Part shown: in pieces, positions 1,618 through 20,394 of the stretch
Layout of the letters: the number at the start of each line of letters is the position of its first letter
How positions within the stretch are numbered: the first letter of the stretch is position 1
Source of the DNA: an uncultured Pseudomonadota bacterium
GTDB lineage: Bacteria; Pseudomonadota; Gammaproteobacteria; Ga0077536
Direction of reading: 5' to 3'
Length of the DNA: 64,000 nt
Assembly (NCBI GenBank): GCA_902597385.1
Contig: CACJXQ010000007.1
Location: 4,272 to 68,271, forward strand
Notes under the pieces: model-generated
Told to the model about the DNA's origin: nothing
Databases searched by the model: none
What the model saw: the letters and a program-made list of their open reading frames with translations, nothing else
Position numbers and translations under genes: made by a program

Positions 1618-2466
1618 TTATTTTCCAAATTTATAATTCAAAACAGCCCAAGCAACATCTGCCGCTTGCCTATTTGCTTTTACATCATGTACCCGAAATA
1701 TTGTTGCCCCCGACTGTACTCCCAATGCTGTAGTCGCACAGGTTGCTCCTTCGAGCTGAGAGGGAGTTCGGGTTCCGCAAATTTCCTGTAAGGATCTTTT
1801 TCTGCTTGTTCCTATCATCACAGGATACCCTATCTCACTGAATTCAGTTAAAGCATTTAGTATGGCCATATTATGCTCAAGCAGTTTCCCAAAGCCAATC
1901 CCCGGATCAACGACAAGTTTGTCTTTAGATACTCCAGCACTATAAGCCAAATCACACATATGTGTAAGATAGGCTTTAATCTCACCAACCACGTCCTTAT
2001 AACTAGGGTTCAACTGCATTGACTCAGGTGAACCTTTTTTATGCATTATTATTAATCCTGCATCATATTTCGACACAACCTCTAGCAGAGCCTTTCCCTG
2101 TCCTCCGGAAACATCATTAATTACTGCAACACCCTCTCTCAAAGCAATTTCGGCCACTTCAGCCTTATTCGTGTCGACGCTCAGTATTTTTTCTGGAGCC
2201 TTCTTCCTAAGATATTTTATCACCGGAAGTATTCTGCGAATTTCCTCTTCCGCCGAAATCTCCACTGCGCCCGGCCGAGTAGACTGTCCACCTATATCTA
2301 TCAAATCAGCACCTTCATTGATCATTTGCAAAGCGTGCGCAGAAGAAAAATCAAGTGTCGTAAACTTTCCACCATCGGAGAAACTATCCGGTGTAGTGTT
2401 CAATATACCCATAATTAGGGGTTTGTTTTTTTTTAGAAGAGTAGCGAAGCTACACAACGTTTTCAT
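1618..2466 (-). CDS. folP: Dihydropteroate synthase
   Basis: 282 aa. GILNTTPDSFSDGG, DIGGQSTRPG, INDVSGG and GIGFGK are FolP signatures. Confidence 0.95.
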   Translation of the reverse strand: MKTLCSFATLLKKNKPLIMGILNTTPDSFSDGGKFTTLDFSSAHALQMINEGADLIDIGGQSTRPGAVEISAEEEIRRILPVIKYLRKKAPEKILSVDTNKAEVAEIALREGVAVINDVSGGQGKALLEVVSKYDAGLIIMHKKGSPESMQLNPSYKDVVGEIKAYLTHMCDLAYSAGVSKDKLVVDPGIGFGKLLEHNMAILNALTEFSEIGYPVMIGTSRKRSLQEICGTRTPSQLEGATCATTALGVQSGATIFRVHDVKANRQAADVAWAVLNYKFGK

Positions 2467-3419
2467 AGCTCTTTTGCTATATCAGTGGTCGCACGGACTA
2501 GAGCATCAATCATTTTTTCCTCGCCAGAGAGATGTCCAGCCGTTCGTATGATTTCCAACTTCGAATTTGGAATCAAACTATGAAGCAGCCAGGAAGAATC
2601 CGGCAGACAGGTCATATCTCTGCCTCCATGGATCAATTTCACCGGCACCCCAGGAACTTTTGCGATATCTCTTAGTAACTGATCTGGTTCCAAAAAATAA
2701 TTGTTTACGGCGTAATGGAGTTCGATTTTTGCTTTAACAATAGTCGATTCAGTGGTCCCACTCAACGAATCGAAACTATTTTCAAAAGAATACGATACTA
2801 CTGCGCCCGACCACTTTTCCCAAGCTAGGGCTGCTTCCATAACAATCTTCTCGTCTGAGGAGTTCAGCATATCATGAAGATGAGAGACAACCTCTTGGCT
2901 CGATGCACTCTTAAAATCTATCGCTTTTCCAAAATCTCGCCATTCCCGAGGCAGAATCTTCGACACACCATCGTCCCCAGCAAACCAGTCTAAATCACAT
3001 TGTCTAGCAAGAAATGACGCTCGCAAGATTAAGCCAAGTACTCTTTCAGGAAAGGATTCAGCGTACAGCAATCCTAGAGCGCTACCCCAAGAACCCGCGA
3101 ATATTAGCCATGATTCAATCCTATAATGCTTCCTAATGGCCTCCATATCCGATACAAGCAAATCGGTAGAGTTATTTTCAGTTCCCCCCAAAGGCGTCGA
3201 ACGTCCCGAGCCTCTTTGGTCAAACAAAATTATTTGGTAGATATCCGAATCAAAAAACCTGCGATGATCAGGCTTACAACCTCCGCCCGGGCCACCGTGA
3301 AGAAAGATAACGGGTATACCGTCCTTCTTACCGCACAATTCAACATAGATTTGATGACCACCTGGCATCTCCAGATGATCTACTTCAATTGGTTCTATAG
3401 AGGGATATAATTTCCTCAT
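2463..3419 (-). CDS. pip: Proline iminopeptidase (alpha/beta hydrolase)
   Basis: 318 aa with an N-terminal LYPSIEP motif, FLHGGPGGG, DQRGSGRS and the nucleophile elbow GSWGS. It overlaps the folP start by 4 nt. Confidence 0.9.
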   Translation of the reverse strand: MRKLYPSIEPIEVDHLEMPGGHQIYVELCGKKDGIPVIFLHGGPGGGCKPDHRRFFDSDIYQIILFDQRGSGRSTPLGGTENNSTDLLVSDMEAIRKHYRIESWLIFAGSWGSALGLLYAESFPERVLGLILRASFLARQCDLDWFAGDDGVSKILPREWRDFGKAIDFKSASSQEVVSHLHDMLNSSDEKIVMEAALAWEKWSGAVVSYSFENSFDSLSGTTESTIVKAKIELHYAVNNYFLEPDQLLRDIAKVPGVPVKLIHGGRDMTCLPDSSWLLHSLIPNSKLEIIRTAGHLSGEEKMIDALVRATTDIAKEL

Positions 3420-3435: not shown

Positions 3436-4368
3436 CTACCATGAGAGAACACCTCCAACACTTATAGAGTCGGTTTCATCTCCTGAATTTTTTTCTAGGT
3501 CCACTTTAGTACGATTATATTCAGCAACTATTCTTAGCCAGGATGTGACATCGTGATAAACCCCCACTGCCCATAACGAACGCTCGAAATTATTTCTCAT
3601 CATTTCTCCAGCAGAATCGACAGAATCAAATAACTCGCCACTCCCATAAGAAAAGCCTAAACGGGTCGCAGTATTAAGATCATAGCTCCCTGTAACTCTG
3701 TAACCCTCTCTCCGATAGTAGGTCCTGAGAATATCGCTTCGTAATAGTCCTGACCTTTTGCTGAACGAGCTGAAGCTCGTGTTGTCTCGGTCACTATAGT
3801 AACCAGTTAAGCTTAAGCCTGCCAGATTAAACGTTGCTCCAGCCGTCCATTCCAGTGACGCATGAGTTTTACAATCCGTCGGACCACAAAAATCCATCTC
3901 CTCACCATATGAACCGTCGGCCCAAAACTTGGTTCTTACCTTCTCCACACTAGTAAAATAATTCAAGTAGATCTTTCGGTTCGCGAAAAAACTGTTACCC
4001 TCCGATAAAAGCCTCAATACCTCGGGCGTTTCCTCCTGAAAGACTCCTTTCCCAAGCGTGTCGAGGCCAACCCTGTATTTATGATAAGGAGAATAATCGG
4101 TTATCTCACCAGCAAACTGGAAATTGATTTTAAACGCACTATACTCACCTTCTGCGGGGATTAGCTGGCTACCCGTGCCACCGTAACTTAAGCTGGTAGC
4201 TAGTATATTAGTGTGGTTGCCCTCAAAAGGCATTCTGAAAACGCTGGAATCACCGTGTTTTACAGTAAGCGAGTAATCAATCTCATTCGCAAATAAACCG
4301 CCTTTTAAACCCACCAAAACAGCGAAGCAAACAAGAAGCCAATTTTTTGATATGTTTTGCTGCCTCAT
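3436..4368 (-). CDS. Outer-membrane beta-barrel / porin-like protein
   Basis: 310 aa with a signal peptide (WLLVCFAVLVGLKGGLFA). It shows alternating amphipathic Y/G/S/T-rich strands and an aromatic C-terminal residue (GGVLSW), typical of outer-membrane proteins. Confidence 0.6.
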   Translation of the reverse strand: MRQQNISKNWLLVCFAVLVGLKGGLFANEIDYSLTVKHGDSSVFRMPFEGNHTNILATSLSYGGTGSQLIPAEGEYSAFKINFQFAGEITDYSPYHKYRVGLDTLGKGVFQEETPEVLRLLSEGNSFFANRKIYLNYFTSVEKVRTKFWADGSYGEEMDFCGPTDCKTHASLEWTAGATFNLAGLSLTGYYSDRDNTSFSSFSKRSGLLRSDILRTYYRREGYRVTGSYDLNTATRLGFSYGSGELFDSVDSAGEMMRNNFERSLWAVGVYHDVTSWLRIVAEYNRTKVDLEKNSGDETDSISVGGVLSW

Positions 4369-4466: not shown

Positions 4467-4826
4467 CTAACCCCCTCCCTTTTGAAAAGCCGTATCGAAC
4501 CGGCGCATGAAATTTGTAATTTCATCCTTCTCGAAACCCTTAAACCAAAATAACACTTCTAAATAAGGAAACTTCAGCCTCCCTATTCTCCGCTGGCGCT
4601 CTTCAGAAACTTTTACAACAATCTCTTTCCCAGCACTGTTATTCAGAACCCGCAATCCGATTTTCGTTTCAAAATCACATTTAAATTCATCGTTCTCCGT
4701 TATTAAAGGTACAACTTCTCCCCAAACATCGCATACCCTCGGGAAAACTCTCTGAAAATCCTTATGAGTTATTCCTAAATCTTTCCTCTCAATAAAATCA
4801 GAAAACTTTCCTCCAATGCGCACCAC
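4467..4826 (-). CDS. Hypothetical protein, last gene of the aldehyde oxidoreductase operon (start uncertain)
   Basis: The track ORF is 4467..4919, but the ATG at 4919 would overlap the upstream MoaD-like gene by 92 nt. GTG codons at 4826 and 4823 lie just after that gene's TAA (4828-4830) and are preceded by a GGGGGT Shine-Dalgarno-like run. No family recognised. The C-terminus is FQKGGG. Confidence 0.4.
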   Translation of the reverse strand: MVRIGGKFSDFIERKDLGITHKDFQRVFPRVCDVWGEVVPLITENDEFKCDFETKIGLRVLNNSAGKEIVVKVSEERQRRIGRLKFPYLEVLFWFKGFEKDEITNFMRRFDTAFQKGGG

Positions 4827-4827
4827 C

Positions 4828-5079
4828 TTACCCCCCTGCCACTGGCGGCCATAAAGCCAGCACGTCCCCTTCTGAGAAAATTGGCGATTCCCGATCTTCA
4901 GGCTCGATGTAAATTCCATTCAGTAAAACTAGATGAACAGTATTCTTAGGAATTTCGTAACGAACCAGCACATCGTGGACCGAAGTGTCTGCCAAGATTT
5001 CTATAAAAGTGGAATTTCCCACCGAGCCTTCAGGCAAATGCTTACTCAGAGAGGCAAATAATTTGAATTTTATTTTCAA
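4828..5079 (-). CDS. MoaD/ThiS-family sulfur-carrier-like protein (AorD-like)
   Basis: 83 aa: MKIKFKLFASLSKHLP...GDVLALWPPVAGG. It has the length, beta-grasp pattern and GG terminus of the family. This is the second such gene in the window. Confidence 0.8.
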   Translation of the reverse strand: MKIKFKLFASLSKHLPEGSVGNSTFIEILADTSVHDVLVRYEIPKNTVHLVLLNGIYIEPEDRESPIFSEGDVLALWPPVAGG

Positions 5080-5139: not shown

Positions 5140-6417
5140 TCAAGCAAGAACCTTTGAGTTAAAACCCAGCGCTTGAGTAGACGATAGGTACGCTTCCATT
5201 AATCTGGTTGGATCCTTAAGTAGACGGTCTTTCCAATCACCCAACCGAATTCTGCTCTGGATTAGGCCACGTAAAACGCCCACATGTTGCGTCATTCCAA
5301 TGCTCGTCGCCCCTACCAAAAGATCGCCCTCGAATTGCAGGTTAAAGTATTTGAATGTGTCTTTATTTATCAAACTTACCTGTTCTCCGTCCTTCACTCC
5401 TGCCCAAGCTCCGAATGAACATGAAATTAGCCCTAGAGTGTCCAAAACATTCATATTAATTGAACCTTGATGGTTAACTGATCCCAGTTGAATCATATTC
5501 TTAGCAGCCACCCTGGCATGATCTACGGCCGTAGGCTGGATCGCCTGAATGGAATATTCCCCGGTAGAAAAATCTAGCCCCTCCGCCACATCACCTGCAG
5601 CAAACACATCAGGGTCGCTAGTTTGCATAGACCTGTTCACAAGGATTCCTTGGCCTATCTTTAATTGCTCTTTTTTCAGAAACCCCGTATTCGGAGAAAC
5701 TCCGGTCGCTGAAACAGCTAAATTAGCCTGCAATGTTTTACCATCACTGAGCTTCAGGACAAGCTCACCACTGTCTAGTTTCTCAATTTCTTCAACCCTA
5801 GTCCCGGTATGGATACTCACTCCCTTACTTAGGCACCAATCTTTAATCATCCCACCAGCCTCATCATTCATCATTCTCGGAACCATCCGATCTTCCATTT
5901 CGACGACAGTTAGATTAGCACCACTCTTGACGAGCGCCTCAAGTATTATGCAACCAATAAACCCTGCACCCATCAACACAACATCATCACCTTTTCTAAT
6001 TTTATTCAGCAGATAGCGAGCATCTGCCAAAGTCCAACATGAGCTTACGCCCTCGGTCTCTATACCTTGAATCTTTGGAATATTGGGGGAAGAACCAGTA
6101 GCTAATAGCAGTTTATCGTATTGCAAACTTTTATTAGTTGATTCATTTAAGAGTAGTGTCTTGTTGGTAAGATCTATGGCGCTTAATTCGCCGTTTATTA
6201 AGTCAATTCCAATGGAAGAAAAATGGTCTTTATTCTTCCGGAGGTGAGTCCCGTTTTCTTCAATCTGATCGATAAGATAATAGGGGATAGCCATTCTTGA
6301 ATAAGGGGGCGCGTCTTCATTATTTAAAATGGTCACCCGCGCATCTTTTTGATGCGTTTTTAGGGTTTCAGCTGCCACCACCCCAGCGGGTCCCGAGCCA
6401 ACAATCACGTGATGCAT
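5140..6417 (-). CDS. FAD/NAD(P)-binding pyridine nucleotide-disulfide oxidoreductase family protein (AorC-like subunit)
   Basis: 425 aa. It has an N-terminal Rossmann fold (VIVGSGPAGV), a second dinucleotide fold (VVLMGAGFIGCI) and AAGDVA near the C-terminal third. Confidence 0.8.
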   Translation of the reverse strand: MHHVIVGSGPAGVVAAETLKTHQKDARVTILNNEDAPPYSRMAIPYYLIDQIEENGTHLRKNKDHFSSIGIDLINGELSAIDLTNKTLLLNESTNKSLQYDKLLLATGSSPNIPKIQGIETEGVSSCWTLADARYLLNKIRKGDDVVLMGAGFIGCIILEALVKSGANLTVVEMEDRMVPRMMNDEAGGMIKDWCLSKGVSIHTGTRVEEIEKLDSGELVLKLSDGKTLQANLAVSATGVSPNTGFLKKEQLKIGQGILVNRSMQTSDPDVFAAGDVAEGLDFSTGEYSIQAIQPTAVDHARVAAKNMIQLGSVNHQGSINMNVLDTLGLISCSFGAWAGVKDGEQVSLINKDTFKYFNLQFEGDLLVGATSIGMTQHVGVLRGLIQSRIRLGDWKDRLLKDPTRLMEAYLSSTQALGFNSKVLA

Positions 6418-6432
6418 AAGTTCTTACCTCTG

Positions 6433-8283
6433 CTAAACGTTCAGTCTTTTTAGAGTATCCGGCTTTGGTTCACCGTCCTCAGTCCAGCCTCTCGCCTCAT
6501 AATAGGCGGGCAACATTTCATCCAGCCTATTAACTGCACCCTTTGCTGGACCTGTCTTAGCGGCATCCTTCAACAATCGTTTCGGAAGTGTATCATCCTC
6601 TTTGGTCAAACCAGCATCTAAATTGAACTTCCTCTCGAGATTCCAGATTCTTTCACCTGCCTCAAGAAGCGATTCGGGCGTCCAATTACCTTCACAGGCT
6701 GCATCCACTTGAGGAGCTATATCTTCAAGAGTCCAAGCAAAAGTAGTGAAGGTACACAACCCAGTCGAATCTACAGCTGCAGTAGCATCTTGAAACCCTT
6801 TAACTAACTCGGGCTTCCCTTCCGTGCTCAGCGGATCCGTTTTCACCGGAACACCCATTATCTCCGAAGAAACAGTATACCCTCTCAAGTGACAAGCTCC
6901 CCTGTTTGAAGTGGCATAAGCTAAGCCCATTCCTTGGACTCCTCGAGGATCATAAGCTGGAAACTCCTGACCTTTAACTGTCATCGACAGCTCTGGTTTT
7001 CCATACTTTTCACAAAGCCTCTTTGAGCCCAAGCCAAGGTCACGACCAAAGCCGTCACCGGTAGCTGTTAACTCAGCTGCCTTTGTCAACGCCTCAGCTG
7101 ATCCAAAACGCATTTCGATTCCACCAGTGTCTTTCAGTGTTATCGCTCCTGTTTCAAATAATTCCATCGCAGCAGCAACAGTAGCTCCAAAAGAAATAGG
7201 GTCAAAACCATCCTCGTTACATATGAAATTAGCATAGGTAAGGGCATCCAGGTCATCTACGCCAGTGTCAGATCCGAGTGACCAAGCTGATTCGTACTCT
7301 AGGCCGCCGGATGCGCCCATGTATTCTGGCTTATTCTCAATCGTATAGTGTTTTGGATCTACTGTTGAAATACGACCACATGCAATAGTACAACCAAAAC
7401 ATGCGGCATTTGTAACTAGGTTCGGTTTTCCGTCACTTTCCCTTGGTTCGTGCATAGCTTCCGCTGATATTTTATGCGCCCCCTCAAACTGAACTTCTTT
7501 GAAATTACGTGTGGGCATTGCACCTACTTCATTAATCACATTCATCAAAACTTGCGTGCCCATTTGGGGCAGTCCCTCAGCAGTAACGGCATTTTCCGCC
7601 AACACTTTTTTAGCCTCAGCTGTAGCGGACAAAAAGGCCTTTGGATTAGCTATGTTGCCCACCCCTAAATTGCCTCTAACTACGACGGCTTTCAGCTGCT
7701 TCGAAGCCATTACAGTACCTACCCCAGAACGCCCCGCAGCTCTATGCAGGTCATTAATCACGCCTGAATACAGACAACCCTGTTCCGCAGAACGCCCAAC
7801 ACATGCTATTTTAGCCAGGGGATCTTGGTGAACATTGTGTAATATTTCATCCGTCTCCCACACAGACTTACCCCATAGCTCGTCAGCACTTAACAATTGG
7901 GCTTTCAGATTTTCAACATGCAGGTAAACAGGTTTTTCGGATTTACCCTCAAAGATGAACATATCCCATCCAGCATTTTTCATTTCAGCACCTATGAATC
8001 CCCCTGAATTAGAGCACGCTATGGCCCCTGTGAGAGGACTTTTAGTTACTACCGAATACCGTCCGCCCGTCGAAGCGGTAGTGCCAGTAAGAGGGCCTGT
8101 CACCATAATTAATTTGTTTTCTGGCGAAAGAGCATCCACTTTTGGATCAATTTCTTCGGCCAGATATCTGCTTGCAAGACCTCGTTGACCGAGGTATTGC
8201 ATCGCCCATTCCATATTTAATGGCTCCTCGTTACACGTACCATTTGTCAAGTCAACACGTAGAACTCTTTTTTGCCACGCCAT
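6433..8283 (-). CDS. aor: Aldehyde:ferredoxin oxidoreductase family, tungstopterin-type catalytic subunit (AorB-like)
   Basis: 616 aa. The N-terminus (LRVDLTNG...LGQRGLASRYL...PENKLIMVTGPLTGT...GGRYSVVTKSPLTG) is the AOR N-terminal domain. Downstream are CFGCTIAC (4Fe-4S ligands) and SNRGACHLRGY. Confidence 0.9.
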   Translation of the reverse strand: MAWQKRVLRVDLTNGTCNEEPLNMEWAMQYLGQRGLASRYLAEEIDPKVDALSPENKLIMVTGPLTGTTASTGGRYSVVTKSPLTGAIACSNSGGFIGAEMKNAGWDMFIFEGKSEKPVYLHVENLKAQLLSADELWGKSVWETDEILHNVHQDPLAKIACVGRSAEQGCLYSGVINDLHRAAGRSGVGTVMASKQLKAVVVRGNLGVGNIANPKAFLSATAEAKKVLAENAVTAEGLPQMGTQVLMNVINEVGAMPTRNFKEVQFEGAHKISAEAMHEPRESDGKPNLVTNAACFGCTIACGRISTVDPKHYTIENKPEYMGASGGLEYESAWSLGSDTGVDDLDALTYANFICNEDGFDPISFGATVAAAMELFETGAITLKDTGGIEMRFGSAEALTKAAELTATGDGFGRDLGLGSKRLCEKYGKPELSMTVKGQEFPAYDPRGVQGMGLAYATSNRGACHLRGYTVSSEIMGVPVKTDPLSTEGKPELVKGFQDATAAVDSTGLCTFTTFAWTLEDIAPQVDAACEGNWTPESLLEAGERIWNLERKFNLDAGLTKEDDTLPKRLLKDAAKTGPAKGAVNRLDEMLPAYYEARGWTEDGEPKPDTLKRLNV

Positions 8284-8320: not shown

Positions 8321-8785
8321 TCACGCTTTTATGGTTTGCGCCGCATGTGCACGCATTCGGTCCATGCCCGCATTCGAGGCATCTACATAGGTAATAGCTT
8401 CTGTCGGGCAGGCCTCCACGCAAGCAGGATCTCCTCCGCAGAGATCGCATTTGATAACCTTTCCAGAATCAGCATTATAATTTACTGTGCCAAACGGGCA
8501 GGCAATCGTACAAACTTTACATCCAACACAAACGTCCTCAGATACATCCTTTGCGCCTGTACCAGGATTTATCGTAATGGCATCTACCGGACACGCGTGC
8601 AAACACCATGCCTCGGCACATTGACTGCACGTATACGGAGCAAAACGCCCCTCTTCATGGAAAGTAAAAACCTTAATTCTAGACTTTGATGGATTGAAGA
8701 CCCCTTCGTTTTCATACGAGCAGGCCATTTCACACTGCAAACAACCAGTGCATTTCTCAGATTCCAATTGTAACGATCTCAACAT
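8321..8785 (-). CDS. Poly-ferredoxin with four predicted [4Fe-4S] clusters (AorA-like electron-transfer subunit)
   Basis: 154 aa with 16 Cys in four cluster motifs: CTGCLQCEMAC, CSQCAEAWCLHACP, CVGCKVCTIACP and CDLCGGDPACVEACP. Confidence 0.85.
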   Translation of the reverse strand: MLRSLQLESEKCTGCLQCEMACSYENEGVFNPSKSRIKVFTFHEEGRFAPYTCSQCAEAWCLHACPVDAITINPGTGAKDVSEDVCVGCKVCTIACPFGTVNYNADSGKVIKCDLCGGDPACVEACPTEAITYVDASNAGMDRMRAHAAQTIKA

Positions 8786-9068
8786 AACGGGTGCTCCTAT
8801 AACTTTATGTTCGGTAGAAGTTCATTGAATCCGCGCAACACACCGAAAAACAGAAACTCTTGCCCTGCATTCATGCTAAACGCGCGAAGATATCCCCAAA
8901 TGCGAAATTTTTTGTAGAATCATGTTTTGAACTTCACTCCTGTGGAGTAGACTATCTATTAATTAACAAAAAAACCATAATCTTCCTCGATTAATTTTAA
9001 GTAATGCGTCTCATTCTCATTAAGGTAGTGCTATTATCAAAACTAGATATGAAAATCCAAGTATTTGT

Positions 9069-9863
9069 ATGAACAAAGCTCTCAATTCAATTGCACTGTT
9101 GTTAGGCTTTTGTATAACTTATACCGCCTTAGCACAGGAAGAAATATTGATAGGTTACATTGGAGACACCAAGAGCGAAGCTCGCCGAGGTGTAGAACTT
9201 GGATTGCAGGAGTCTAATATTCAAGGCAAATTTCTAGGCCACTCGTTCCGAATCCTCGACAACCCCACTCCCCTGCAAATTCGTGTCCTTGGGAATCTCA
9301 AAGCAGTCGTGTCGAAGAAAGATGCTTCTGAACTGAGGATTTTTGCAACACAGTCCGCTGAAATTCCTATCTTTAATGTCTCCGAACGCTCAGAAGCCCT
9401 CAGGGAGGAATGCCACGAGAACCTACTACATATAATCACTAGCGAGGCTATGCTCGACGACGCGATTAGTCAATGGTCAAGAGGAAGAATCAATAACTCT
9501 GTCAAGGCTATAGGGTGGCACCATTCTCTAAGGAAGTATGCTGCTTCCCAACTAAACTCCAGATACCAACAAAAATTTAATGAGCCGATGAGTGAACTTG
9601 CTTGGGCAGGTTGGGCAAGTATTAAAATTATCTCTGATACCATCGCACGGTCAGCAAACTCCGATCGATTACTCTCGACAATCAAAAATGATTTAAAGTT
9701 TGATGGTCAGAAAGGTGTAAGTATGAGTTTCCGTGAAAACGGGCAGTTAAGGCAACCGGTCCTAATTACACAAAATGATGAGATGATAGGTGAAATTCCT
9801 CCATCTGGTCCCAACACTAAAAACCAACTTGATAGTCTCGGTACCACCGATTGTTATAAATAA
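9069..9863 (+). CDS. Periplasmic substrate-binding-protein-like protein (Leu/Ile/Val-type fold, short)
   Basis: 264 aa with a signal peptide (ALLLGFCITYTALA). ILIGYIGD...ARRGVELGLQESN...GKFLGHSF resembles the N-lobe of type-I periplasmic binding proteins. It is shorter than typical (~380 aa) members. Confidence 0.5.
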   Translation: MNKALNSIALLLGFCITYTALAQEEILIGYIGDTKSEARRGVELGLQESNIQGKFLGHSFRILDNPTPLQIRVLGNLKAVVSKKDASELRIFATQSAEIPIFNVSERSEALREECHENLLHIITSEAMLDDAISQWSRGRINNSVKAIGWHHSLRKYAASQLNSRYQQKFNEPMSELAWAGWASIKIISDTIARSANSDRLLSTIKNDLKFDGQKGVSMSFRENGQLRQPVLITQNDEMIGEIPPSGPNTKNQLDSLGTTDCYK

Positions 9864-9878
9864 CGCTGAGAGAAAAAA

Positions 9879-10826
9879 ATGCTGAAAAACTTACTTTTAT
9901 TTTTCATTTTATCCAATTTTAGTAACAGTTACGCGGCTTCGAACCGAATCTTCGTGAGTAACGAGTACGGAAACTCAGTCACCGTGATAGACGCCAAATC
10001 CAATACTGTAATAAAAAACATATCGGTAGGTACAAGGCCTAGAGGCATTGGTCTATCGCCTGATAAAACCGAGCTATATGTTGCAATAAGCGTTGATAAT
10101 CAAATAGCAGTTATCGATACTCAATCATTACAAATTGTAAGAAAATTTAAAAGCGGAGATGACCCGGAAGCTTTCGCTGTACATCCAAATGGAAATCTCT
10201 ACATCTCGAACGAAGAAGATGCGAAGGCATCGGTGTACGATCCCAAGACGGGAGCTCTGCTTGCCGAAATAGAGGTAGGGATCGAACCAGAAGGGGTCGC
10301 CATCTCTCCAGATGGAAAGATTGTGATTGTTACTAGCGAATCCTCGAATATGCTACACCTCATTTCGGTTCCATCTCACACTATTTTAAGAAATATTTTA
10401 GTAGGTGCTCGCCCAAGATCTGCATGTTTCAGTTTGGATGGGACCGTAGCATACGCTACCTCGGAAATAAGCGGAGAAGTAAAGAAAATCGATGTGGCCT
10501 CTGGAAATATTCTGGGTAAAAATGCTCTGATGGACAGTAGCGCGAAGCCTAAGGACATTTTGTTAAGCAGAGATGGGACACAGCTTTATGTGGCAGGAGG
10601 ACGGGCCAACAAAGTCTTTTTTCTTGATGCCAATACTCTAGAGTTGCAAAAAAGTATCCCCGTGGGGAAAAGAGTGTGGGGCCTTGCTCTGAGTGCCGAT
10701 GGTCGAACACTTTATTCAACGGATGGAGTCGATAATCAGATATCCGTGATCGATACCGTTAGTCAAACTCGAACATTAACTATACCGGTTGGCAAATTCC
10801 CTTGGGGAATAGTAATTGACGATTAA
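9879..10826 (+). CDS. YVTN-family seven-bladed beta-propeller repeat protein, periplasmic
   Basis: 315 aa with a signal peptide. It carries about seven ~42-aa repeats of the pattern xVxVIDxxxxxxxxxIxVGxxPxGxxxSPDGxxxYV, for example SVTVIDAKSNTVIKNISVGTRPRGIGLSPDKTELYVA. Confidence 0.8.
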   Translation: MLKNLLLFFILSNFSNSYAASNRIFVSNEYGNSVTVIDAKSNTVIKNISVGTRPRGIGLSPDKTELYVAISVDNQIAVIDTQSLQIVRKFKSGDDPEAFAVHPNGNLYISNEEDAKASVYDPKTGALLAEIEVGIEPEGVAISPDGKIVIVTSESSNMLHLISVPSHTILRNILVGARPRSACFSLDGTVAYATSEISGEVKKIDVASGNILGKNALMDSSAKPKDILLSRDGTQLYVAGGRANKVFFLDANTLELQKSIPVGKRVWGLALSADGRTLYSTDGVDNQISVIDTVSQTRTLTIPVGKFPWGIVIDD

Positions 10827-10832
10827 TAACCT

Positions 10833-13295
10833 TTAGATACTCACTTTTAATCCTAGCCATATACCCCTCGGAGCTCCAGGGGAAAGAAATCGCTCAGGAT
10901 TCGTGTTAATTGATGGAATGACTGATCTTGGGTCCTCTCCTACTACCCCAAAATTCTCATAATCATTGTCAAATAGGTTATCTATTTTTAAGTACCAACT
11001 AACTCCAGTCGTTATTCTGTATATCGCTGAAACATCAAACAGAAAATAACTATCTAATCTGGGGAGTTGATTAGATTCATCTCCTCTTAAAAACTGCTTC
11101 GAAGTGAAAGTCATACCAGGGCTCAACATGATTTTTTCCGTGACTTGCAATGTCGAAAATACTTTCAATTGATGTTTAGGTATGCTGGGTAAATAGTCAC
11201 CAGTAGAGACTAGCACTTCTCCGTTAGCGCTTGCGAATGGGTGGTTGGGACTCATAATCCTCAGTTCATCCTCAAAAGTCGCCTTGAGGAAATTATAATT
11301 TAATCCAAAATCGAATTTTTCAAAGGTCCCTCGAAACAAAAAATCTACTCCTTCCCTTTTAGTCTCATCTACGTTAGCGAACAACCCGGTGCTTCGCCCA
11401 GTAGACTGAAAAATAATATCATCATGATTCGTGTGATTGTGATAGCTTAGATCGGCTTCCAACCATTCAAAATTGACTCGGCCTCCCACTTCAAACCCCT
11501 TAGCAACCACTTGCTTCAAAGGTGGATCAGCAACAAAAGCATTCGGTAATCTGCATTCGAAATCGATGTCATCAGGATCTTGTCCGCGTTGGACAGCAAA
11601 ATTCTGAGCTACCTGGAAAACGCCTTCATTACAAGAAAGCTCTATTGGTGTAGGAATTCGGGAAGACTCTCCATAGTTCCCATAAAGTAACACACTAGAG
11701 GACACGCTATAGCTCACACCTAACGTGTAATTCGGTCTATCAAATTGGTGTTCGCCGTTCAGCTCAGGGCGCTCTCCCGAACGATCAGCTATCTCAATAT
11801 CAGCATAAAAATACTTTAAACCAATCGAGAAAAGAAGGTCATCCGATAGCTCTATGACATTATTAACATACGCCTCCCAAACTTTATTTTTTGTAGAGAC
11901 ATTTGTGGCCTCCTCATTCAAAAAGGTTCCGAGGCCTAGTCCTCGCGTGCTGCGAGTAAGAGGGTCTAGTAATGACAACTCTGTTACTGAATTGAATCTT
12001 GCCAGACCCTCATTGAAGGTTAATCCCGTATCGAATGTATTATTAAGACCTAAGAAATTAACGGATGTTCCAAAGTTTGTAGAGAAGCCGTAGGACTCCT
12101 GCTCTCGATCGGAAATATTGTTGATGGCAGAGTCACTAAGAAGCCCCGTTCCAGAAATTTCCTCAGCATCCACATCATCCAAGTCAAAATCCAAACCTGC
12201 AGCCGAAGCATTAATGGCGTCTTCTAGATCGTCCACATTATTAGCGCCGAAAATATTTGCTCCTCCGCAAATGTCATTTTCACTTATTCCATTAAGTTCA
12301 CCAATATTCTCTCTGAGCCCTTCTATTAAAAACTCGCCCGCTCCTAAACGACAAAGGGATAGCTCAGAAGCATCACCATTGAAAGCGTTCGTTTTGGTTT
12401 TTCTGTAAAAAGCATCAAACCCAAGCTCGACCCCGTTGAGGAACTCCATGTCAAGTTCCGCGATCACCAAGTTGGTTTTGTTCTCAGTTAAATCAGGAGC
12501 AGTGAAGATAGAGTCGCGGTCCTGTTGAAGGAGTGCCTGGGGAACTGCACCATTTCCCGCTAAATCGCTATTTCCATGCAAGTAATAAACATCTCCCGAA
12601 ATAAGCTCATTGCGAAAAGAGAGAGCTCCATACACATTGTGCAGCTCTGACTCAGAGAGATCTCTCCAACCGTCTTCTTCTGTGTAGCTTAAGTTCACAT
12701 AATATCCTAGTCGGCCATTATTACCGCCATGCTGAATATTGGCAGTATGCCGACCCCAAGAGCCAGTACTTAAATCAACGCGGGTCTCATCGAAACTAAA
12801 CCCGGTTTTCGTTTCAAGACTCAAAGAGCCTCCCAAAGAATTTAGCCCAAACAACGGCGTGGCCCCAGAGATCAACGTGAGATTCGAGACTGCACTAATC
12901 GGTATCATGTCCCAGTTAACCTCTTGGCCTAGCGGTTCGTTTAAAGGTGTACTTCCTAGATAAATTGATAGGCCTTGCGAAACGCCAAGTAATGGTGAGG
13001 AAGAATAGCCACGGAAAGATAAGTCTTTTTGGAATGGGTTATTTTGAGCATCGGTCAAATGCACGCCTCCAACGGATCTCTCAAGAGAAGACGGCAAGTC
13101 ATTTGCAAAGGAAAGTTCCACACCAGAGCTATCGATTTTTTGTGCCTTGTAGGGAGCTTTAAATGAGTCCAAAAGGTTGTTTGTTCCTGGAGACAGACCT
13201 ATCACGACAGTTTCTTCAACCTCTACCTCGTTAGCAGAGGCCAAACATTGAAAAAAAAGCCAGAGTATTGAAATCTTAACTATTGTATTGAACAT
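10833..13295 (-). CDS. TonB-dependent outer-membrane receptor
   Basis: 820 aa with a signal peptide. The plug region reads EETVVIG...VHLTDAQNNPFQKDLSFRGY...LSIYLGSTPLNEP. A long beta-barrel follows, with a DNLFDNDYENF motif near the C-terminus. Confidence 0.88.
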   Translation of the reverse strand: MFNTIVKISILWLFFQCLASANEVEVEETVVIGLSPGTNNLLDSFKAPYKAQKIDSSGVELSFANDLPSSLERSVGGVHLTDAQNNPFQKDLSFRGYSSSPLLGVSQGLSIYLGSTPLNEPLGQEVNWDMIPISAVSNLTLISGATPLFGLNSLGGSLSLETKTGFSFDETRVDLSTGSWGRHTANIQHGGNNGRLGYYVNLSYTEEDGWRDLSESELHNVYGALSFRNELISGDVYYLHGNSDLAGNGAVPQALLQQDRDSIFTAPDLTENKTNLVIAELDMEFLNGVELGFDAFYRKTKTNAFNGDASELSLCRLGAGEFLIEGLRENIGELNGISENDICGGANIFGANNVDDLEDAINASAAGLDFDLDDVDAEEISGTGLLSDSAINNISDREQESYGFSTNFGTSVNFLGLNNTFDTGLTFNEGLARFNSVTELSLLDPLTRSTRGLGLGTFLNEEATNVSTKNKVWEAYVNNVIELSDDLLFSIGLKYFYADIEIADRSGERPELNGEHQFDRPNYTLGVSYSVSSSVLLYGNYGESSRIPTPIELSCNEGVFQVAQNFAVQRGQDPDDIDFECRLPNAFVADPPLKQVVAKGFEVGGRVNFEWLEADLSYHNHTNHDDIIFQSTGRSTGLFANVDETKREGVDFLFRGTFEKFDFGLNYNFLKATFEDELRIMSPNHPFASANGEVLVSTGDYLPSIPKHQLKVFSTLQVTEKIMLSPGMTFTSKQFLRGDESNQLPRLDSYFLFDVSAIYRITTGVSWYLKIDNLFDNDYENFGVVGEDPRSVIPSINTNPERFLSPGAPRGIWLGLKVSI

Positions 13296-13353: not shown

Positions 13354-13686
13354 TTAATTATTTTTGTTATAAACATCAATTTGTTCCTGTGATGCCTCAC
13401 TCTGATATTTTTCTTTCCAGTCAGCGTAAGGCATACCATATATTATCTCCCTTGCATCTTCATATTCGAGTTTGATCCCTTCCTTTTCTGCTTCCGCTTT
13501 ATACCACTTCGAGATGCAATTGCGACAAAAACCAGCCAAATTCATCAAATCAATGTTTTGTACATCGGTATTTTCGCGCAAATAATTGACCAAATGTCGG
13601 AAAGTGGCTGCTTCTATTTCTACACGTTTTTCTGGATCCATTAACTTTGCTCCTATTTCGCTATGTAAACTATGTGCCGAGCTCAT
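13354..13686 (-). CDS. DUF1244-family protein
   Basis: 110 aa. NIDLMNLAGFCRNCISKWY and EIIYGMPYADWK match my recollection of the DUF1244 conserved core. Confidence 0.65.
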   Translation of the reverse strand: MSSAHSLHSEIGAKLMDPEKRVEIEAATFRHLVNYLRENTDVQNIDLMNLAGFCRNCISKWYKAEAEKEGIKLEYEDAREIIYGMPYADWKEKYQSEASQEQIDVYNKNN

Positions 13687-13691
13687 ATCGG

Positions 13692-14270
13692 CTAATTATC
13701 TGAACTATAAATTATTCCATATTTTTTAATTCGATGCCTAAGCGCCATCCTACCCAAACCCAGATTTCTGGCTGCCTTTGACACATTCCCTTTCGAAGCG
13801 GTCAAAGCTTCCCTAATCATAGCTTGATCGATGTCAGTTAAGGTTTGAAACCGCGTCTCAGCAGTAGATTTAGCAGAAGCATTCCATTCCTCAATTAATG
13901 AAGCCACCAGCTTCGATAACGTGTCTAGATCAATGGGCTTGCTCAGATAATCACACGCTTTCATTTTCATAGCTGCAACTGCGTTGTCAACAGTAGCATA
14001 GGCGGTCAGCACGAATACAGGGAAGTCGCGTTTCTCTTCGATTTCCTCTAGGAACTGCAACCCATTGCCATCCGGAAGCTGCATATCTAAAATAAGCAAG
14101 CCAGGTGACTTAGTCTTTAAGGACTTCCTAGCCTGTTCCAAACTACACACGTGGTCACAGAAATATCCGTCTTTCTTCAGACGCCTTTGGACCGCCCTAC
14201 CAAAGGCATGTTCATCATCCACCAATAACACTTTAGGTATCAGATCAGGATTTTTATCAGAAACGCTCAT
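13692..14270 (-). CDS. Response regulator with receiver and Fis-type HTH domains and no AAA+ domain
   Basis: 192 aa. The receiver domain shows VLLVDDE, LLILDMQLPDGNG and DYLSKP. The C-terminal HTH_8-like segment reads GNVSKAARNLGLGRMALRHRIKKYGI. Confidence 0.85.
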   Translation of the reverse strand: MSVSDKNPDLIPKVLLVDDEHAFGRAVQRRLKKDGYFCDHVCSLEQARKSLKTKSPGLLILDMQLPDGNGLQFLEEIEEKRDFPVFVLTAYATVDNAVAAMKMKACDYLSKPIDLDTLSKLVASLIEEWNASAKSTAETRFQTLTDIDQAMIREALTASKGNVSKAARNLGLGRMALRHRIKKYGIIYSSDN

Positions 14271-15808
14271 CCACTCTCTCGCTTTTGCTCTCGAAAATAA
14301 ATAACAGCTCTAGCACCTTTTCTCGCTGATTTTTCAAAATCAAATATAAAACCATGAATGTCGCAAACTTTTTGAACTATAGGGAGACCTAAGCCAGTGC
14401 CGAATTCTTTGGTGGAAGGACCTGGCTTCAATTCTGTAGCTCGATATTCAAACGGTAAACCGGGGCCGTCGTCTTCAATGTAGAACAAGTTCCCCTCAGG
14501 GTTCGTATAGAAGCCTATCCTGATCTCACCTTCTTTGGGACTAGCATCAATAGCATTGCTAAGCAGACAAAAGATAGCTTGTTCCATCAGATCTAAGTCG
14601 GCAGATATCTCTACCGACTTATCCCAGTTTTTATAAGTAATATAAACATTCTTAGGAAAAACCGGATTACTTAACAAACTTACTGCCCCCTCGACCACTT
14701 TTCGAAAATCAATTGTAGCAAAACGAGGACTCACTGGGTGCAGATAGGATACAAGTGAATTTATCCACTTAGTCAACTTATCTACGGTAGTCAAGATGGC
14801 AATTTGACTTTCATTAATCTCTGATCGAGATTGCCCTTCTTCCAGTAACTGAGCATTTGCTCGAATTGATGCTAAAGGATTTTTAACATTGTGAGCAATG
14901 ACAGGAACTAGCTTAGCTAACGCAGTTTGTCTTTCGTTACTTTTCAGCTCTTCACGGCTGAGTTCGAGTGCTTCGGCTATAAGATTGATTTCGGAAGCAA
15001 GCAGCCTCATCTCTTGAGCTCCCACCTCTGGTAATTTCTCTTTGGTAATGCCCTTCAGCAACGTTTCAGAATTCGAAACGATAGCCTGTAGTGGGGTCCA
15101 AAACTGACGATGTAAGCCTTTTCTGGATAGGAGTAACAAAAGGATGGACGTGATGATCAAAACTAACAATACGAGTGAACCAAGTGTACTCAAATTTTGC
15201 TTTGAAGACTCTTGAGAGAATCTCTGTTGCTCTATGACCCCTCTCAAAGATATCAACGCAAAGTGAAAATCACGCTTCATAAACACAATAAGGCAAGCCA
15301 GTTCCCCTAATTTACTCATGCCTGGTCTTAAACAGTGCTCCTTTGGACCCGCCTTTCTATCCTGAAAGTTCCATCTATCAACCACTGCACTTGAAGTACC
15401 TCCCCTCTCTGTTGATAGCGACCATTCATGTTGATAGTTAGTCAAAAGATCCAAGGCATAAGAGGCAGCAACTTGCAATTCTTGAACGGCATAGTCTTCT
15501 GCTCTGTTGTTAGACAATCTTCTTAGTTGATCTAATTGAACCAAACTATTCTTTAGCGAAACGCTCACGCTCTCTAGACTGCTCGACTGCAAATTGCCGC
15601 TTCTTTTTCTGAGAGAGCTTAAGTCATCTAAAAAATGTCTACCCAGGTTCTCATTAATACGAGACATCTCAGCCAAGCGAACTGTTTCCTGAGACCATTT
15701 CAACCAAAAGTATGACCAACCTAATCCCACAAATACTGATATGAAGACAAGAAGCACGAAAAATGTTTCATATATTAGTAATAGGCGTCTTATGGAGGAT
15801 TTATTCAA
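14267..15808 (-). CDS. Sensor histidine kinase with two TM helices and a ~170-aa periplasmic domain
   Basis: 513 aa with TM helices near residues 10-36 and 208-228. The H-box is IAHNVKNPLASIRANAQLL. The ATPase region shows N/G boxes (LLSNAIDAS, IEDDGPGLP, GTGLGLPIV). It overlaps the response regulator gene by 4 nt. Confidence 0.88.
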   Translation of the reverse strand: MNKSSIRRLLLIYETFFVLLVFISVFVGLGWSYFWLKWSQETVRLAEMSRINENLGRHFLDDLSSLRKRSGNLQSSSLESVSVSLKNSLVQLDQLRRLSNNRAEDYAVQELQVAASYALDLLTNYQHEWSLSTERGGTSSAVVDRWNFQDRKAGPKEHCLRPGMSKLGELACLIVFMKRDFHFALISLRGVIEQQRFSQESSKQNLSTLGSLVLLVLIITSILLLLLSRKGLHRQFWTPLQAIVSNSETLLKGITKEKLPEVGAQEMRLLASEINLIAEALELSREELKSNERQTALAKLVPVIAHNVKNPLASIRANAQLLEEGQSRSEINESQIAILTTVDKLTKWINSLVSYLHPVSPRFATIDFRKVVEGAVSLLSNPVFPKNVYITYKNWDKSVEISADLDLMEQAIFCLLSNAIDASPKEGEIRIGFYTNPEGNLFYIEDDGPGLPFEYRATELKPGPSTKEFGTGLGLPIVQKVCDIHGFIFDFEKSARKGARAVIYFREQKRESG

Positions 15809-17886: not shown

Positions 17887-18491
17887 ATAAATCAACTGCC
17901 CTCTTCAGTAAAAGTCGCAATACCTTCGACCCTTTCACCGACCTGTTATTTAATGCTTTACTCGGCTTCACTTTTCTTTTTTTAGTGGCAATCCTGTTTA
18001 TGAATCCAGTCTCCAAAAGCGGTATTGTTAATCCAAAGGCTGAGTATATCGTGACGGTTAATTGGCCAGATAACAACCCAGACGATATTGACATATGGGT
18101 GGAGGACCCTGTAGGAAATTTAATCTGGTTTAGGAACCGAGAAGCTGGCTTAGTTCACCTAGACAGAGACGATAGAGGGATCATAAACGACCAAATCGAA
18201 ATGGACGGACAGACCGTAGAAACCAGCCTCAATCAAGAGGTTGTAACTATTCGAGGACGCGTGACTGGAGAGTACGTGATAAATCTCCACTATTATGAAT
18301 CAAAAACAAACTTACCTGTAAAAGCTACAGTGGAGGTAGCAAAAATAAATCCAGCCGTAGAAATTGTTTACTATGGCGAAACAGTTTTGAAAGAAAAAGG
18401 AGTCGAAGAAACCGCCGTGCGATTTTCTATTGTTGAGGACGGAAGTGTCAATAACGTGAACACGAACAAGAAAAGTATAATTGTTTTATAA
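17883..18491 (+). CDS. Membrane-anchored protein with an ExbD/TolR-like N-terminal TM helix and an unassigned beta-rich periplasmic domain
   Basis: 202 aa. The GTG start overlaps the upstream stop (GTGA), suggesting translational coupling. The TM segment FDPFTDLLFNALLGFTFLFLVAILFM carries an Asp, as in ExbD/TolR. I do not recognise the C-terminal ~150 aa (IVTVNWPDNNPDDIDIWVEDPVGNLIWFRNRE...GEYVINLHYYES). Confidence 0.55.
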   Translation: MNKSTALFSKSRNTFDPFTDLLFNALLGFTFLFLVAILFMNPVSKSGIVNPKAEYIVTVNWPDNNPDDIDIWVEDPVGNLIWFRNREAGLVHLDRDDRGIINDQIEMDGQTVETSLNQEVVTIRGRVTGEYVINLHYYESKTNLPVKATVEVAKINPAVEIVYYGETVLKEKGVEETAVRFSIVEDGSVNNVNTNKKSIIVL

Positions 18492-18505
18492 GGGAAAATC
18501 TGATT

Positions 18506-19021
18506 ATGTTAGGAGTAATTAGTCTCGTTGGAAGCTATGTCCTAGTAGCATTGCTACTATTATCCTTAAATTTGTACTCTAATTGGGGTTGGAGAGTAAA
18601 AACAGGGGCAGTAACGCTAGTATCAATTTTCTATCTCTTAACCTACCTTTCGTTTCCACCCATTCTTGGTTGGCCAACGAAGGACAAAATCCCCGATGAT
18701 TTCAGATTAATTAGCGGTTATGTGCTAGAGCCAAACAAAAAGACGGGAGAGGATGGAAAGATATTCCTATGGCTAACAGATCTTTCGAAAAACCCAAAAG
18801 TAGCTAAGCCAAGAGCTTTCGTTTTGCCTTACTCCGACGAACTAAATCAAAAGGTAGCTTCTGCGTCCGATAAGCTAAAAAAAGGAAAACCCCAAATTGG
18901 AGAAGTACAAGAAAACAATAAGGAACTCTCTACCTCTTCCCAAGGTTTGTCTAAAAAACAGCCAAAAAGAATTGCTATAAACTTTTTTGATCTACCCGAC
19001 CCCTCGCTCCCATCAAAATAA
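18506..19021 (+). CDS. Hypothetical membrane protein (2 TM helices plus a Lys-rich soluble tail)
   Basis: 171 aa, starting 14 nt after the previous gene, with AAGGGA upstream as a possible ribosome-binding site. Two N-terminal hydrophobic helices. No family recognised. Confidence 0.5.
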   Translation: MLGVISLVGSYVLVALLLLSLNLYSNWGWRVKTGAVTLVSIFYLLTYLSFPPILGWPTKDKIPDDFRLISGYVLEPNKKTGEDGKIFLWLTDLSKNPKVAKPRAFVLPYSDELNQKVASASDKLKKGKPQIGEVQENNKELSTSSQGLSKKQPKRIAINFFDLPDPSLPSK

Positions 19022-19035
19022 AAGTGAGAATAAAT

Positions 19036-20394
19036 TTACAAGGGTCTTAAGTTATAGATCGAATTGTTCCATAGAAATCCAAGGTAGCGCTGGCCTGACC
19101 CGAATTTTCTGGCAAATTCTCTAGAAATACCCAGACCGGCCACGGCTATAAGTTCATCGCCATAATATATCAACGGGGTTAAACCTCTTTCCCAAGGAGG
19201 CACCCTCCATTCCTGGAATAATTTCTTAAGCTCGTTAGATTTATTCCGGTTGCTCGGCCAAAAACGCTCTCCACCCCGTCTAAACTTAATAGTAAATTTT
19301 CTATCTTCAAAAAAACGTTCGCTTATACCGAATTCTGCTGTTTCTCCAATACTTAGGCATCCCCATGGCAACCTAAATGATTCGATGGGATCCCATTCGA
19401 AAGTATCGTTGTTGACCAAGTTCTCTTGCGGACTTCCGATCAAATATATATATCCGTCGTATCGGCCTAACTCATGAGTTCCGATTTTTATTCTTGGATT
19501 TGCATCTGCTTTCGCCTCCATCATTTGGGTAATAATAGCCTCTAATTTTTTTTCTCTAGGCACCGGAAATCCAGAGTCTGTCAGAGCTTTACGTAGGATA
19601 TATGGGCGCAAAATATCTTTGCTACTGCTCAGTGCTTTGACAGAGAACTTCTTCGGCAAAAAGCGCTCCTCAGCCAAACAAGAATCGGCCATGTGATCCA
19701 ATATGTCACAGAGTTCTGTTTGAATCTTGGCGAGTTTCTCCAGTCGCGACTCTACTTTCGTAGAAAACGACTTTAAACTAGGTATTACAAAATTCCTAAT
19801 TCTCGTTCGCTCATATCTCAACTCATAATTCATCGGGTCTTCATACCAAACCAATTTTCTCTCTATAGCGAACGAGGTTATCTCATCCCGAGAAACTTCC
19901 AAAAGTGGTCTCCCTATATATCCAGGATTCAACTTTCTTAGAGGTACAATCCCACGTAACCCGTAAGGGCCCGCTCCTTGCGTTACTCTCTGAACAACAG
20001 TCTCAACATTATCGTTGTAATGATGAGCGGTCAATACAAGACTTTTAGAATTTATATCGCCACGAATAATTCTATAGCGTTCATTCCTGGCCCATTCTTC
20101 AACGCTTTGACCCTTAGGCGGCCCTGTGTCGAGCTCGTAAACTTTTAGGTTTACACCCTTCACCTTCGCCAAGCGAGCACACTTTTCGGCCTGAGCATTG
20201 CTATTAGAATTTAGCCTATGATCAATGTGCACAGCCCTTAAACTAGAACCTAATTCATCTTTTATCCCGACCAACAATTCAAGCAGCACAGTTGAGTCTC
20301 GCCCGCCACTAAATAACAGGACCAGTTCTCGAGCCCTTGACCGTGCCAAAAATGTGCTCAGCGCCGTCTTGACGCTATGGTGTATATCACTCAA
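19036..20394 (-). CDS. tilS: tRNA(Ile)-lysidine synthase
   Basis: 452 aa. It has the PP-loop LLFSGGRDSTVLL and sits in the conserved accA-tilS context. Confidence 0.92.
   Translation of the reverse strand: MSDIHHSVKTALSTFLARSRARELVLLFSGGRDSTVLLELLVGIKDELGSSLRAVHIDHRLNSNSNAQAEKCARLAKVKGVNLKVYELDTGPPKGQSVEEWARNERYRIIRGDINSKSLVLTAHHYNDNVETVVQRVTQGAGPYGLRGIVPLRKLNPGYIGRPLLEVSRDEITSFAIERKLVWYEDPMNYELRYERTRIRNFVIPSLKSFSTKVESRLEKLAKIQTELCDILDHMADSCLAEERFLPKKFSVKALSSSKDILRPYILRKALTDSGFPVPREKKLEAIITQMMEAKADANPRIKIGTHELGRYDGYIYLIGSPQENLVNNDTFEWDPIESFRLPWGCLSIGETAEFGISERFFEDRKFTIKFRRGGERFWPSNRNKSNELKKLFQEWRVPPWERGLTPLIYYGDELIAVAGLGISREFARKFGSGQRYLGFLWNNSIYNLRPL

Follow-up and report, generated by a model that had tools for sequence, protein, structure and literature searches.

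The subject of this analysis is a pair of adjacent genes, encoding a short periplasmic binding protein and a YVTN beta-propeller, in an uncultured gammaproteobacterium (GTDB lineage Ga0077536). The pair lies in a 64,000-nucleotide stretch of contig CACJXQ010000007.1, referred to below as the window. The genome (GCA_902597385.1) is a metagenome-assembled genome that is 73% complete, and the window's contig is designated C7. The two genes are separated by 15 nt, and both products carry Sec-type leaders, recognized by eye as a hydrophobic core followed by ALA/QE in the binding protein and by SYA/AS in the propeller. Upstream, the pair is divergent from an aorABC operon for a tungsten-type aldehyde oxidoreductase (AOR). 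Downstream, a gene for a TonB-dependent receptor is convergent with the pair, 6 nt from the propeller gene; 3' of the receptor gene as the window is read, and on the same strand, are genes for a DUF1244 protein, an NtrC-type regulator that lacks the AAA+ module, and a histidine kinase. A preliminary description of this DNA had noted the signal-bearing 264-aa gene with a propeller 15 nt on, the divergent AOR operon, and the convergent receptor, and all of these were confirmed.

Sequence comparison indicates that the binding protein is a PedA1/LutA homologue minus ~100 residues, which make up most of lobe 2. It scores 120.2 bits against TIGR03863, below the family cutoff of 413.6, and the match is split between profile positions 9-124 and 220-339, leaving ~125-219 unmatched. 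The other profile match, to Peripla_BP_6, is weak. The canonical PedA1 of Colwellia (404 aa) scores 476 bits against TIGR03863, and hhalign aligns the short protein to it with a probability of 99.7%, 27% identity, shared motifs, and one gap of ~100 residues after residue 140. The binding-protein family named in the preliminary description is thus recovered as a divergent homologue, though under the cutoff. An AlphaFold model (pLDDT 90.2, pTM 0.88) was matched by Foldseek to LivJ-type class I binding proteins, with TM scores of ~0.65 on the query and ~0.5 on the targets. The lower score on the targets is consistent with the loss of most of lobe 2, and the protein does not have the complete two-lobe class I architecture. 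A search of PDB sequences with a profile of the short family returned just one match, which was insignificant.

The short form is a family in its own right, found as a pair with the propeller in hundreds of bacterial species, mostly uncultured. A word-indexed search identified 148 relatives, nearly all 255-275 aa in length, and an alignment of 35 of these has 38 invariant positions. When 1.84 billion representatives were searched exhaustively with a profile, 1633 proteins reached E<=1e-3. Lengths among the top ~70 are 245-300 aa throughout, and each of these matches in a single stretch; proteins of ~400 aa in this set match in two stretches, as expected of the canonical form carrying an insert. 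Relative to an 89%-identical orthologue, the ratio of nonsynonymous to synonymous substitution rates (dN/dS) is 0.13 for the binding protein, 0.09 for the propeller, and 0.02 for AorB. The possibility, raised earlier, that the binding-protein gene is a decayed fragment is ruled out by its dN/dS, the invariant residues, and the uniform length of its relatives. At one locus, two short binding-protein copies (L034:9974-10798 and 18399-19277) flank a XoxF-type dehydrogenase with the motif WDYD and a receptor. At another locus an insertion sequence, consisting of a DDE_Tnp_1 transposase and a 131-aa open reading frame, lies between the pair genes (L030:10001-13332), and both genes are intact.

The propeller is a PedA2/LutB-type protein that passes the TIGR03866 model end to end (323.3 bits versus a cutoff of 287.3; residues 17-314 on profile positions 6-309 of 310), as the preliminary description had proposed. 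YVTN repeats are present, and seven blades can be inferred from the family. The protein is 42% identical to canonical PedA2, and 58 of its 74 positions that are >=95% conserved are common to canonical PedA2. The score against the YncE model is 76 bits, where the cutoff is 400. None of the papers found describes the role of the propeller in ped/lut-type systems.

Relatives of the pair were sought in genomes scanned at one per species, 276 of which encode them, and the best 79 of the 276 loci were taken. These are the loci nearest the query, so percentages hold for that part of the family. Neighbourhoods were counted in the 38 loci that have >=8 kb on each side (full-flank loci), via a phmmer screen with the window proteins as queries, and genome-level counts refer to the 50 whole genomes that hold the short-pair loci (carriers only). 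The propeller adjoins the short binding protein in 35 of the 38 full-flank loci, which indicates that the pairing is not due to chance.

The absence of an ATP-binding cassette (ABC) partner is a conserved trait of this family. No ABC ATPase adjoins the pair in any of the 38 full-flank loci, in a screen for which the PedC permease model was not searched separately. The cutoff of TIGR03864, the model for the PedB ATPase, is exceeded in only two of the 50 carrier genomes, both Colwellia, and the other 48 lack a PedB-type ATPase. One of the two Colwellia genomes (G047; loci L058 and L119) encodes a complete canonical PedA1-PedA2-PedB-PedC-PedF cluster with a pyrroloquinoline quinone (PQQ)-dependent alcohol dehydrogenase (PQQ-ADH), besides the short pair. 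The co-occurrence of both forms shows that the short pair is a separate paralogous system. In the same genome the short pair occurs with a receptor, YceI, a PQQ-ADH with the motif WDWD, an aldehyde dehydrogenase, and a Rieske-like protein. On contig C7 there is no match to the PQQ dehydrogenase model or to TIGR03864, in agreement with the earlier statement that the window has neither an ATPase nor a PQQ dehydrogenase, and no TIGR03864 ATPase scored above cutoff in the window's genome as a whole, within its 73% completeness. A split operon had been considered as well. PQQ dehydrogenases are indeed encoded elsewhere in the genome (contigs C4, C11, and C33), but no PedB was found anywhere, so a PedBC transporter encoded at a distance is rejected for the family on the genome counts and for this genome within its completeness. 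Overall, the proposal that the pair acts without an ABC transporter is strongly supported.

AorABC was identified in 25 of the 38 full-flank loci, the DUF1244 gene in 20, a homologous TonB receptor in 17, and an NtrBC-like two-component pair in 13. A PQQ-ADH lies beside the pair in only one full-flank locus (seven of the 79 overall). Gene orientation varies: many loci share the divergent layout of the window, and in others kinase, regulator, receptor, pair, aorABC, ThiS, and porin genes follow one another on one strand. This variation argues for functional linkage and not inherited synteny alone. AOR and the TonB receptor accompany the pair as parts of a conserved island; their presence is no peculiarity of the window, the features of which are listed in Table 1.

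Table 1. Genes and other features around the binding-protein/propeller pair, in order of position in the window
Feature	Position	Strand	Evidence and remarks
Prolyl-aminopeptidase-type hydrolase, syntenic island neighbour	2463..3419	-	TIGR01249, 293 bits
Porin_4 outer-membrane porin, end of aor operon	3436..4368	-	PF13609; 25/38 loci
Final aor operon gene, start uncertain	4467..4919	-	kept in 24/38 loci; no family match in profile scans
AorD-like ThiS/MoaD-fold protein	4828..5079	-	orthologues with PF02597/PF14451; 25/38 loci
AorC, FAD/NAD oxidoreductase subunit	5140..6417	-	PadH-like, 269 bits
AorB, predicted tungsten-pterin aldehyde oxidoreductase catalytic subunit	6433..8283	-	977 bits, PDB 8C0Z chain A
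AorA, poly-ferredoxin AOR subunit	8321..8785	-	NCBIfam matches; adjoins pair in 25/38 loci
Divergent intergenic region, aorA / short binding-protein gene	8786..9068		read from sequence
Short PedA1/LutA-like periplasmic binding-protein homologue, most of lobe 2 lost	9069..9863	+	264 aa
PedA2/LutB-type YVTN beta-propeller, periplasmic	9879..10826	+	315 aa; TIGR03866
Acidic TonB-dependent receptor, 820 aa	10833..13295	-	plug and barrel Pfam domains
DUF1244 protein, conserved receptor companion	13354..13686	-	PF06844, 124 bits; 20/38 loci
NtrC-family response regulator without AAA+ module, 192 aa	13692..14270	-	NCBIfam matches
Sensor histidine kinase, partner of NtrC-type regulator	14267..15808	-	NCBIfam matches; orthologues in 13/38 loci

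The island extends into PQQ and pterin cofactor biosynthesis. On the same contig as the pair-adjacent AorB in 22 of 33 cases, pqqC is 8.7-12.7 kb from it in 20 genomes. In one complete chromosome (G040) the gene order is kinase, regulator, receptor, short binding protein, propeller, AorABC, a ThiS-like protein, a gene of unassigned function, and a porin, and then a TPR/sulfotransferase gene, a SHOCT protein, prolyl aminopeptidase, folP, pqqEDC, DUF447, an MfnB-like gene, pqqB, and MoeA. The window keeps the porin, aminopeptidase, and folP, followed by PCD and moaC, and has no pqq genes. At a receptor-less locus (L092) the genes that come after the pair, on its strand, are moaA-fdhD-mobA-mobB-moeA, a gene order that places the pterin-cofactor genes in the neighbourhood. 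In place of AorABC, Colwellia has an NAD aldehyde dehydrogenase and a PQQ-ADH with the Asp-x-Asp motif in the slot that is divergent from the pair. From this replacement we infer that AorABC provides the aldehyde-oxidizing step in a route from periplasmic alcohol to cytoplasmic acid. The ped cluster has in PedI a step comparable to that of AorABC, and it also includes a porin (PMC12997753).

Several further features of these loci were observed. The TIGR01249 hydrolase (293-329 bits) recurs in the window and at L119:2496-3509 and L121:3723-4793; it lies between the porin and the folP/pqq genes in the window and in G040, and beside pedC of the canonical cluster in Colwellia. Between pqqC and pqqB of G040, near MoeA, are a DUF447 gene and a (5-formylfuran-3-yl)methyl phosphate synthase-like gene (L121:8262-9613); such genes are usually tied to the synthesis of methanofuran or methanopterin-type cofactors. 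A gene of the di-haem cytochrome c peroxidase/MauG family, and not a receptor or AOR, comes directly after the pair in one lineage (L031:11731-12675). Beside one intact pair (genome G068) AorB is split into two open reading frames by an in-frame TAG (L094:5990-7840), so that the gene is a pseudogene unless the assembly is in error.

The obligate companion of the pair is a PQQ dehydrogenase and not AOR. PQQ-ADH (TIGR03075) was identified in all 50 carrier genomes, above cutoff in 48, versus 39 of the 50 for AOR (PF01314), which is absent from Colwellia, Methylophaga, and some others. The enzymes directly beside a short pair all have Asp-x-Asp (WDYD, WDWD, or WDLD; seven of seven), a signature linked to lanthanide use. 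The same motif is present in 19 of the 20 enzymes from 17 genomes with <=3 PQQ-ADHs; each of the 17 genomes has at least one such enzyme, and in six it is the sole PQQ-ADH. In the window's genome a search for PQQ dehydrogenases, as the preliminary description had proposed, identified at least three, all outside the window. Two are calcium-type quinohaemoproteins with haem c (WDYN and WDFN), and the third, at the edge of C33, is a PedH-like WDYD enzyme with best PDB matches to 6ZCV and 6ZCW. A receptor gene near the PedH-like gene was considered as a LutH candidate and rejected, as the product is BtuB-like (258 bits, TonB-B12) and the genes around it are unrelated.

Most carriers make their own PQQ, given that pqqC was identified in 44 of the 50, and the pair is thus no marker of PQQ scavenging. 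The window's genus is distinct in this respect. We found pqqC in none of its six genomes, three of which are 90-95% complete, versus 11 of the 12 sister genera of the family. A PqqU-like receptor is encoded on another contig (C1:114400-116319; 356 bits, end to end) and is conserved in five of the six genomes of the genus. These bacteria are probably PQQ auxotrophs that import the cofactor and still run several PQQ enzymes. As to the metal of AorABC, phmmer with an E. coli ModA query and a regular-expression search for TupA via a TTTS motif found no match in the 73%-complete genome, and both are weak negatives.

The TonB-dependent receptor encoded beside the pair matches generic TonB-receptor profiles. 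The exception is the PqqU model NF041535, its second NCBIfam match, to which it scores 58 bits (cutoff 1200) over the plug region only. The receptor has a net charge of -59, versus -15 and -5 for two other receptors of the genome. Across 30 orthologues, those beside the pair share an insertion of 75-80 residues that is 25-35% Asp/Glu and has <=5 Lys/Arg. The AlphaFold model (pLDDT 75, pTM 0.78) places this insertion between barrel strands 7 and 8, and TonB-receptor topology, with short turns after even strands, identifies it in the model as extracellular loop L4. Between strands 13 and 14, in predicted loop L7, is the motif GEDPDDxDFEC, bracketed by invariant cysteines, which we consider a candidate metal site. 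The motif is part of a nearly invariant segment at residues ~555-593 (GEDPDDxDFEC-RLPNAF-ADPPL, flanked by Cys555 and Cys581). In Foldseek searches PqqU/YncD ranked first (E 1e-35), marginally over Fiu, FhuA, and FoxA, at 14-15% identity. The acidity of the receptor would favour a cationic ligand over tungstate or PQQ.

The response regulator of the window is composed of a receiver domain and a Fis-type helix-turn-helix. Full-length orthologues of ~475 aa occur at the same position in 13 of the 38 full-flank loci. At some loci a PedS2/PedR2-like kinase and regulator are encoded upstream of the receptor, pair, and aor genes, all on one strand. A promoter and terminator scan of positions 8700-11000 returned nothing above the shuffled expectation and no convincing sigma-70 promoter in the intergenic region. 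A search for sigma-54 promoters gave 16 matches where 13 were expected, and none is in the intergenic region between aor and the pair.

What might such a pair do without a transporter? We suggest that it constitutes a periplasmic, ABC-independent arm of lanthanide supply for PQQ dehydrogenases, with AorABC as the aldehyde step of the island, and regard this assignment as evenly poised between right and wrong. Via the acidic TonB receptor, a lanthanide, free or chelated, would cross the outer membrane, and the short binding protein and propeller would hold it or pass it on within the periplasm. The recipients would be apo-dehydrogenases of the PedH/XoxF type and perhaps the sensor kinase. Because the dehydrogenase is periplasmic, no import of lanthanide into the cytoplasm would be needed. 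The loss of lobe 2 may accompany the loss of the ABC docking partner, and AorABC would fill the slot that is held in Colwellia by the NAD aldehyde dehydrogenase and PQQ dehydrogenase. The preliminary description had left the choice among a metal, a cofactor, and an alcohol or aldehyde substrate; homology and co-occurrence narrow this towards lanthanide without proving it.

The experimental basis for a lanthanide connection comes from the canonical homologues. PedA1 and PedA2 are needed for lanthanide-dependent growth, with a phenotype that depends on lanthanide concentration (PMC6839425). In Methylorubrum extorquens, lutA and lutB mutants are alike in growth and milder than lutE and lutF mutants, lanthanum builds up in the periplasm of lutA, lutE, and lutF mutants, and LutH is the receptor (PMC7391723).

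Several observations weigh against a role in lanthanide supply. The strongest physical linkage of the pair is to AorABC and not to PQQ-ADH, and at L092 the pair leads directly into pterin-cofactor genes on its own strand. Given that neither ModA nor TupA was found (weak negatives from an incomplete genome), the route by which tungsten enters is unaccounted for. The closest solved fold to the receptor is, marginally, that of PqqU. Because many bacteria have Asp-x-Asp enzymes, finding them together with the pair is of limited specificity. Finally, the binding protein and propeller are not themselves acidic, with net charges of -1 and -5.

The most credible alternative, which we nevertheless consider unlikely, is that the pair has no transport role and serves as a periplasmic chaperone or co-sensor, either a maturation or activation factor for PQQ dehydrogenases, as has been proposed for the binding-protein-like MxaJ/XoxJ, or the ligand-sensing partner of the kinase, as in TorT-TorS. 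The lack of an ABC partner fits such a role, as does the loss of lobe 2 and hence of the normal Venus-flytrap cleft; the motifs common to canonical PedA1 sit in the part that remains. Moreover, a two-component system adjoins the pair in 13 of the 38 loci and PedS2/R2-like pairs do so in others, and XoxJ/MxaJ offer a precedent for binding-protein folds that work in such systems with no transporter (PMC7391723). However, the pair is also found with no kinase, receptor, or enzyme nearby, for example in Methylophaga, and the frequent adjacent acidic TonB receptor would be left unexplained. The dependence of the canonical phenotype on lanthanide concentration (PMC6839425) also weighs against such a role.

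A role for the receptor and pair in the uptake or handling of tungsten for AorABC, as tungstate or as a tungsten-metallophore complex, is distinctly improbable. AorABC is certainly the commonest immediate neighbour, and at some loci its genes and the pair form one run on a single strand; the locus is also flanked by pterin-cofactor genes, and neither ModA nor TupA was detected, as weak negatives from an incomplete genome. Yet 11 of the 50 carriers have no AOR, and all of these have PQQ-ADH. AOR is cytoplasmic, so an inner-membrane importer would still be required, and none is linked. A strongly acidic receptor suits a cation and not an oxyanion, and it is to lanthanides that homologous proteins have been tied experimentally (PMC6839425, PMC7391723).

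Scavenging of external PQQ by the receptor and pair, as might be supposed from the divergent yncE and pqqU/yncD genes of E. coli, from PQQ dehydrogenases without pqqC in the window's genus, and from PqqU as top structural neighbour and second NCBIfam match of the receptor, is very improbable, since the great majority of carriers make their own PQQ, often from genes ~10 kb away, the C1 receptor is a far better PqqU candidate (356 versus 58 bits), the PqqU binding site is described as positively charged (Grinter and Lithgow 2020, as cited in PMC10875860) whereas the window receptor is at -59, and an E. coli yncE deletion mutant has no PQQ phenotype (bioRxiv 10.1101/2022.06.07.495086).

Returning to lanthanide supply, it is possible, though we hold this more tentatively than the role in supply itself, that the short pair and acidic receptor form a self-contained route that delivers lanthanide to the periplasm only, with no cytoplasmic import. 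The usual assumption is that LutA/PedA1 and LutB/PedA2 work for an ABC importer with a membrane part that resembles an exporter. A widespread variant that keeps just these two proteins, with the binding protein halved, shows that LutA/LutB-type proteins have a function of their own. If the route is indeed self-contained, the two proteins would not bind substrate on behalf of an ABC importer but would handle lanthanide in the periplasm as an autonomous complex, and the canonical PedA1A2BC/Lut model would have to be revised. One island would then bundle the supply of PQQ, lanthanide, and the tungsten-pterin cofactor for a two-step pathway from alcohol to acid. The short pair would be a minimal system in which to study LutA/LutB-type function. 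Its receptors, recognizable by their acidic extracellular loops, are candidates for a family that takes lanthanides across the outer membrane of marine Gammaproteobacteria. AorABC, described from a bacterium that degrades aromatic compounds anaerobically, is a regular part of PQQ/lanthanide alcohol-oxidation islands in aerobic-type bacteria.

Among described systems, several share parts of this arrangement. MxaJ and XoxJ belong to another binding-protein class than the short PedA1-like protein and are not known to have a propeller partner. They resemble it as periplasmic binding-protein folds that function in PQQ dehydrogenase systems with no ABC transporter. In E. coli, the gene for YncE, a periplasmic seven-bladed propeller, is likewise beside a TonB receptor gene (PqqU, YncD), but there the receptor charge is opposite in sign and the propeller lacks a binding-protein partner. 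Over nearly its full length AorB is orthologous to the enzyme from Aromatoleum aromaticum EbN1 (PDB 8C0Z, 977 bits), and the EbN1 aor operon similarly comprises three subunits, a MoaD-like AorD, and a fifth gene. Unlike EbN1 AorABC, the complex occurs here in aerobic-type, mostly marine Gammaproteobacteria, within a PQQ/lanthanide island.

By gene content, the locus may also be likened to the xoxF3 clusters that Acidobacteria and Gemmatimonadetes carry (PMC10875860, Fig. 5). These combine a TIGR03866-type propeller and a TonB receptor with a lanthanide-type dehydrogenase and, as for the short pair, no Lut-type ABC transporter is shown. They belong to other phyla, include NRAMP and cytochrome oxidase, and are reported with neither a short PedA1-like protein nor AOR. 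The closest counterparts remain PedA1A2BC of Pseudomonas putida KT2440 and LutA-LutB-LutE-LutF of M. extorquens AM1. The short pair differs from these in that no PedB-type ATPase is found in 48 of the 50 genomes, the binding protein is ~100 residues shorter and far under the family cutoff, and the usual neighbour is AorABC in place of PQQ-ADH. The two proteins are homologous to their ped and lut counterparts, periplasmic, and encoded in the same A1-then-A2 order. As in the lut cluster, which has LutH, a TonB receptor is encoded alongside the pair, and, as in ped and lut systems generally, the carriers hold lanthanide-type PQQ dehydrogenases, with PedS2/R2-like regulators at some of the loci.

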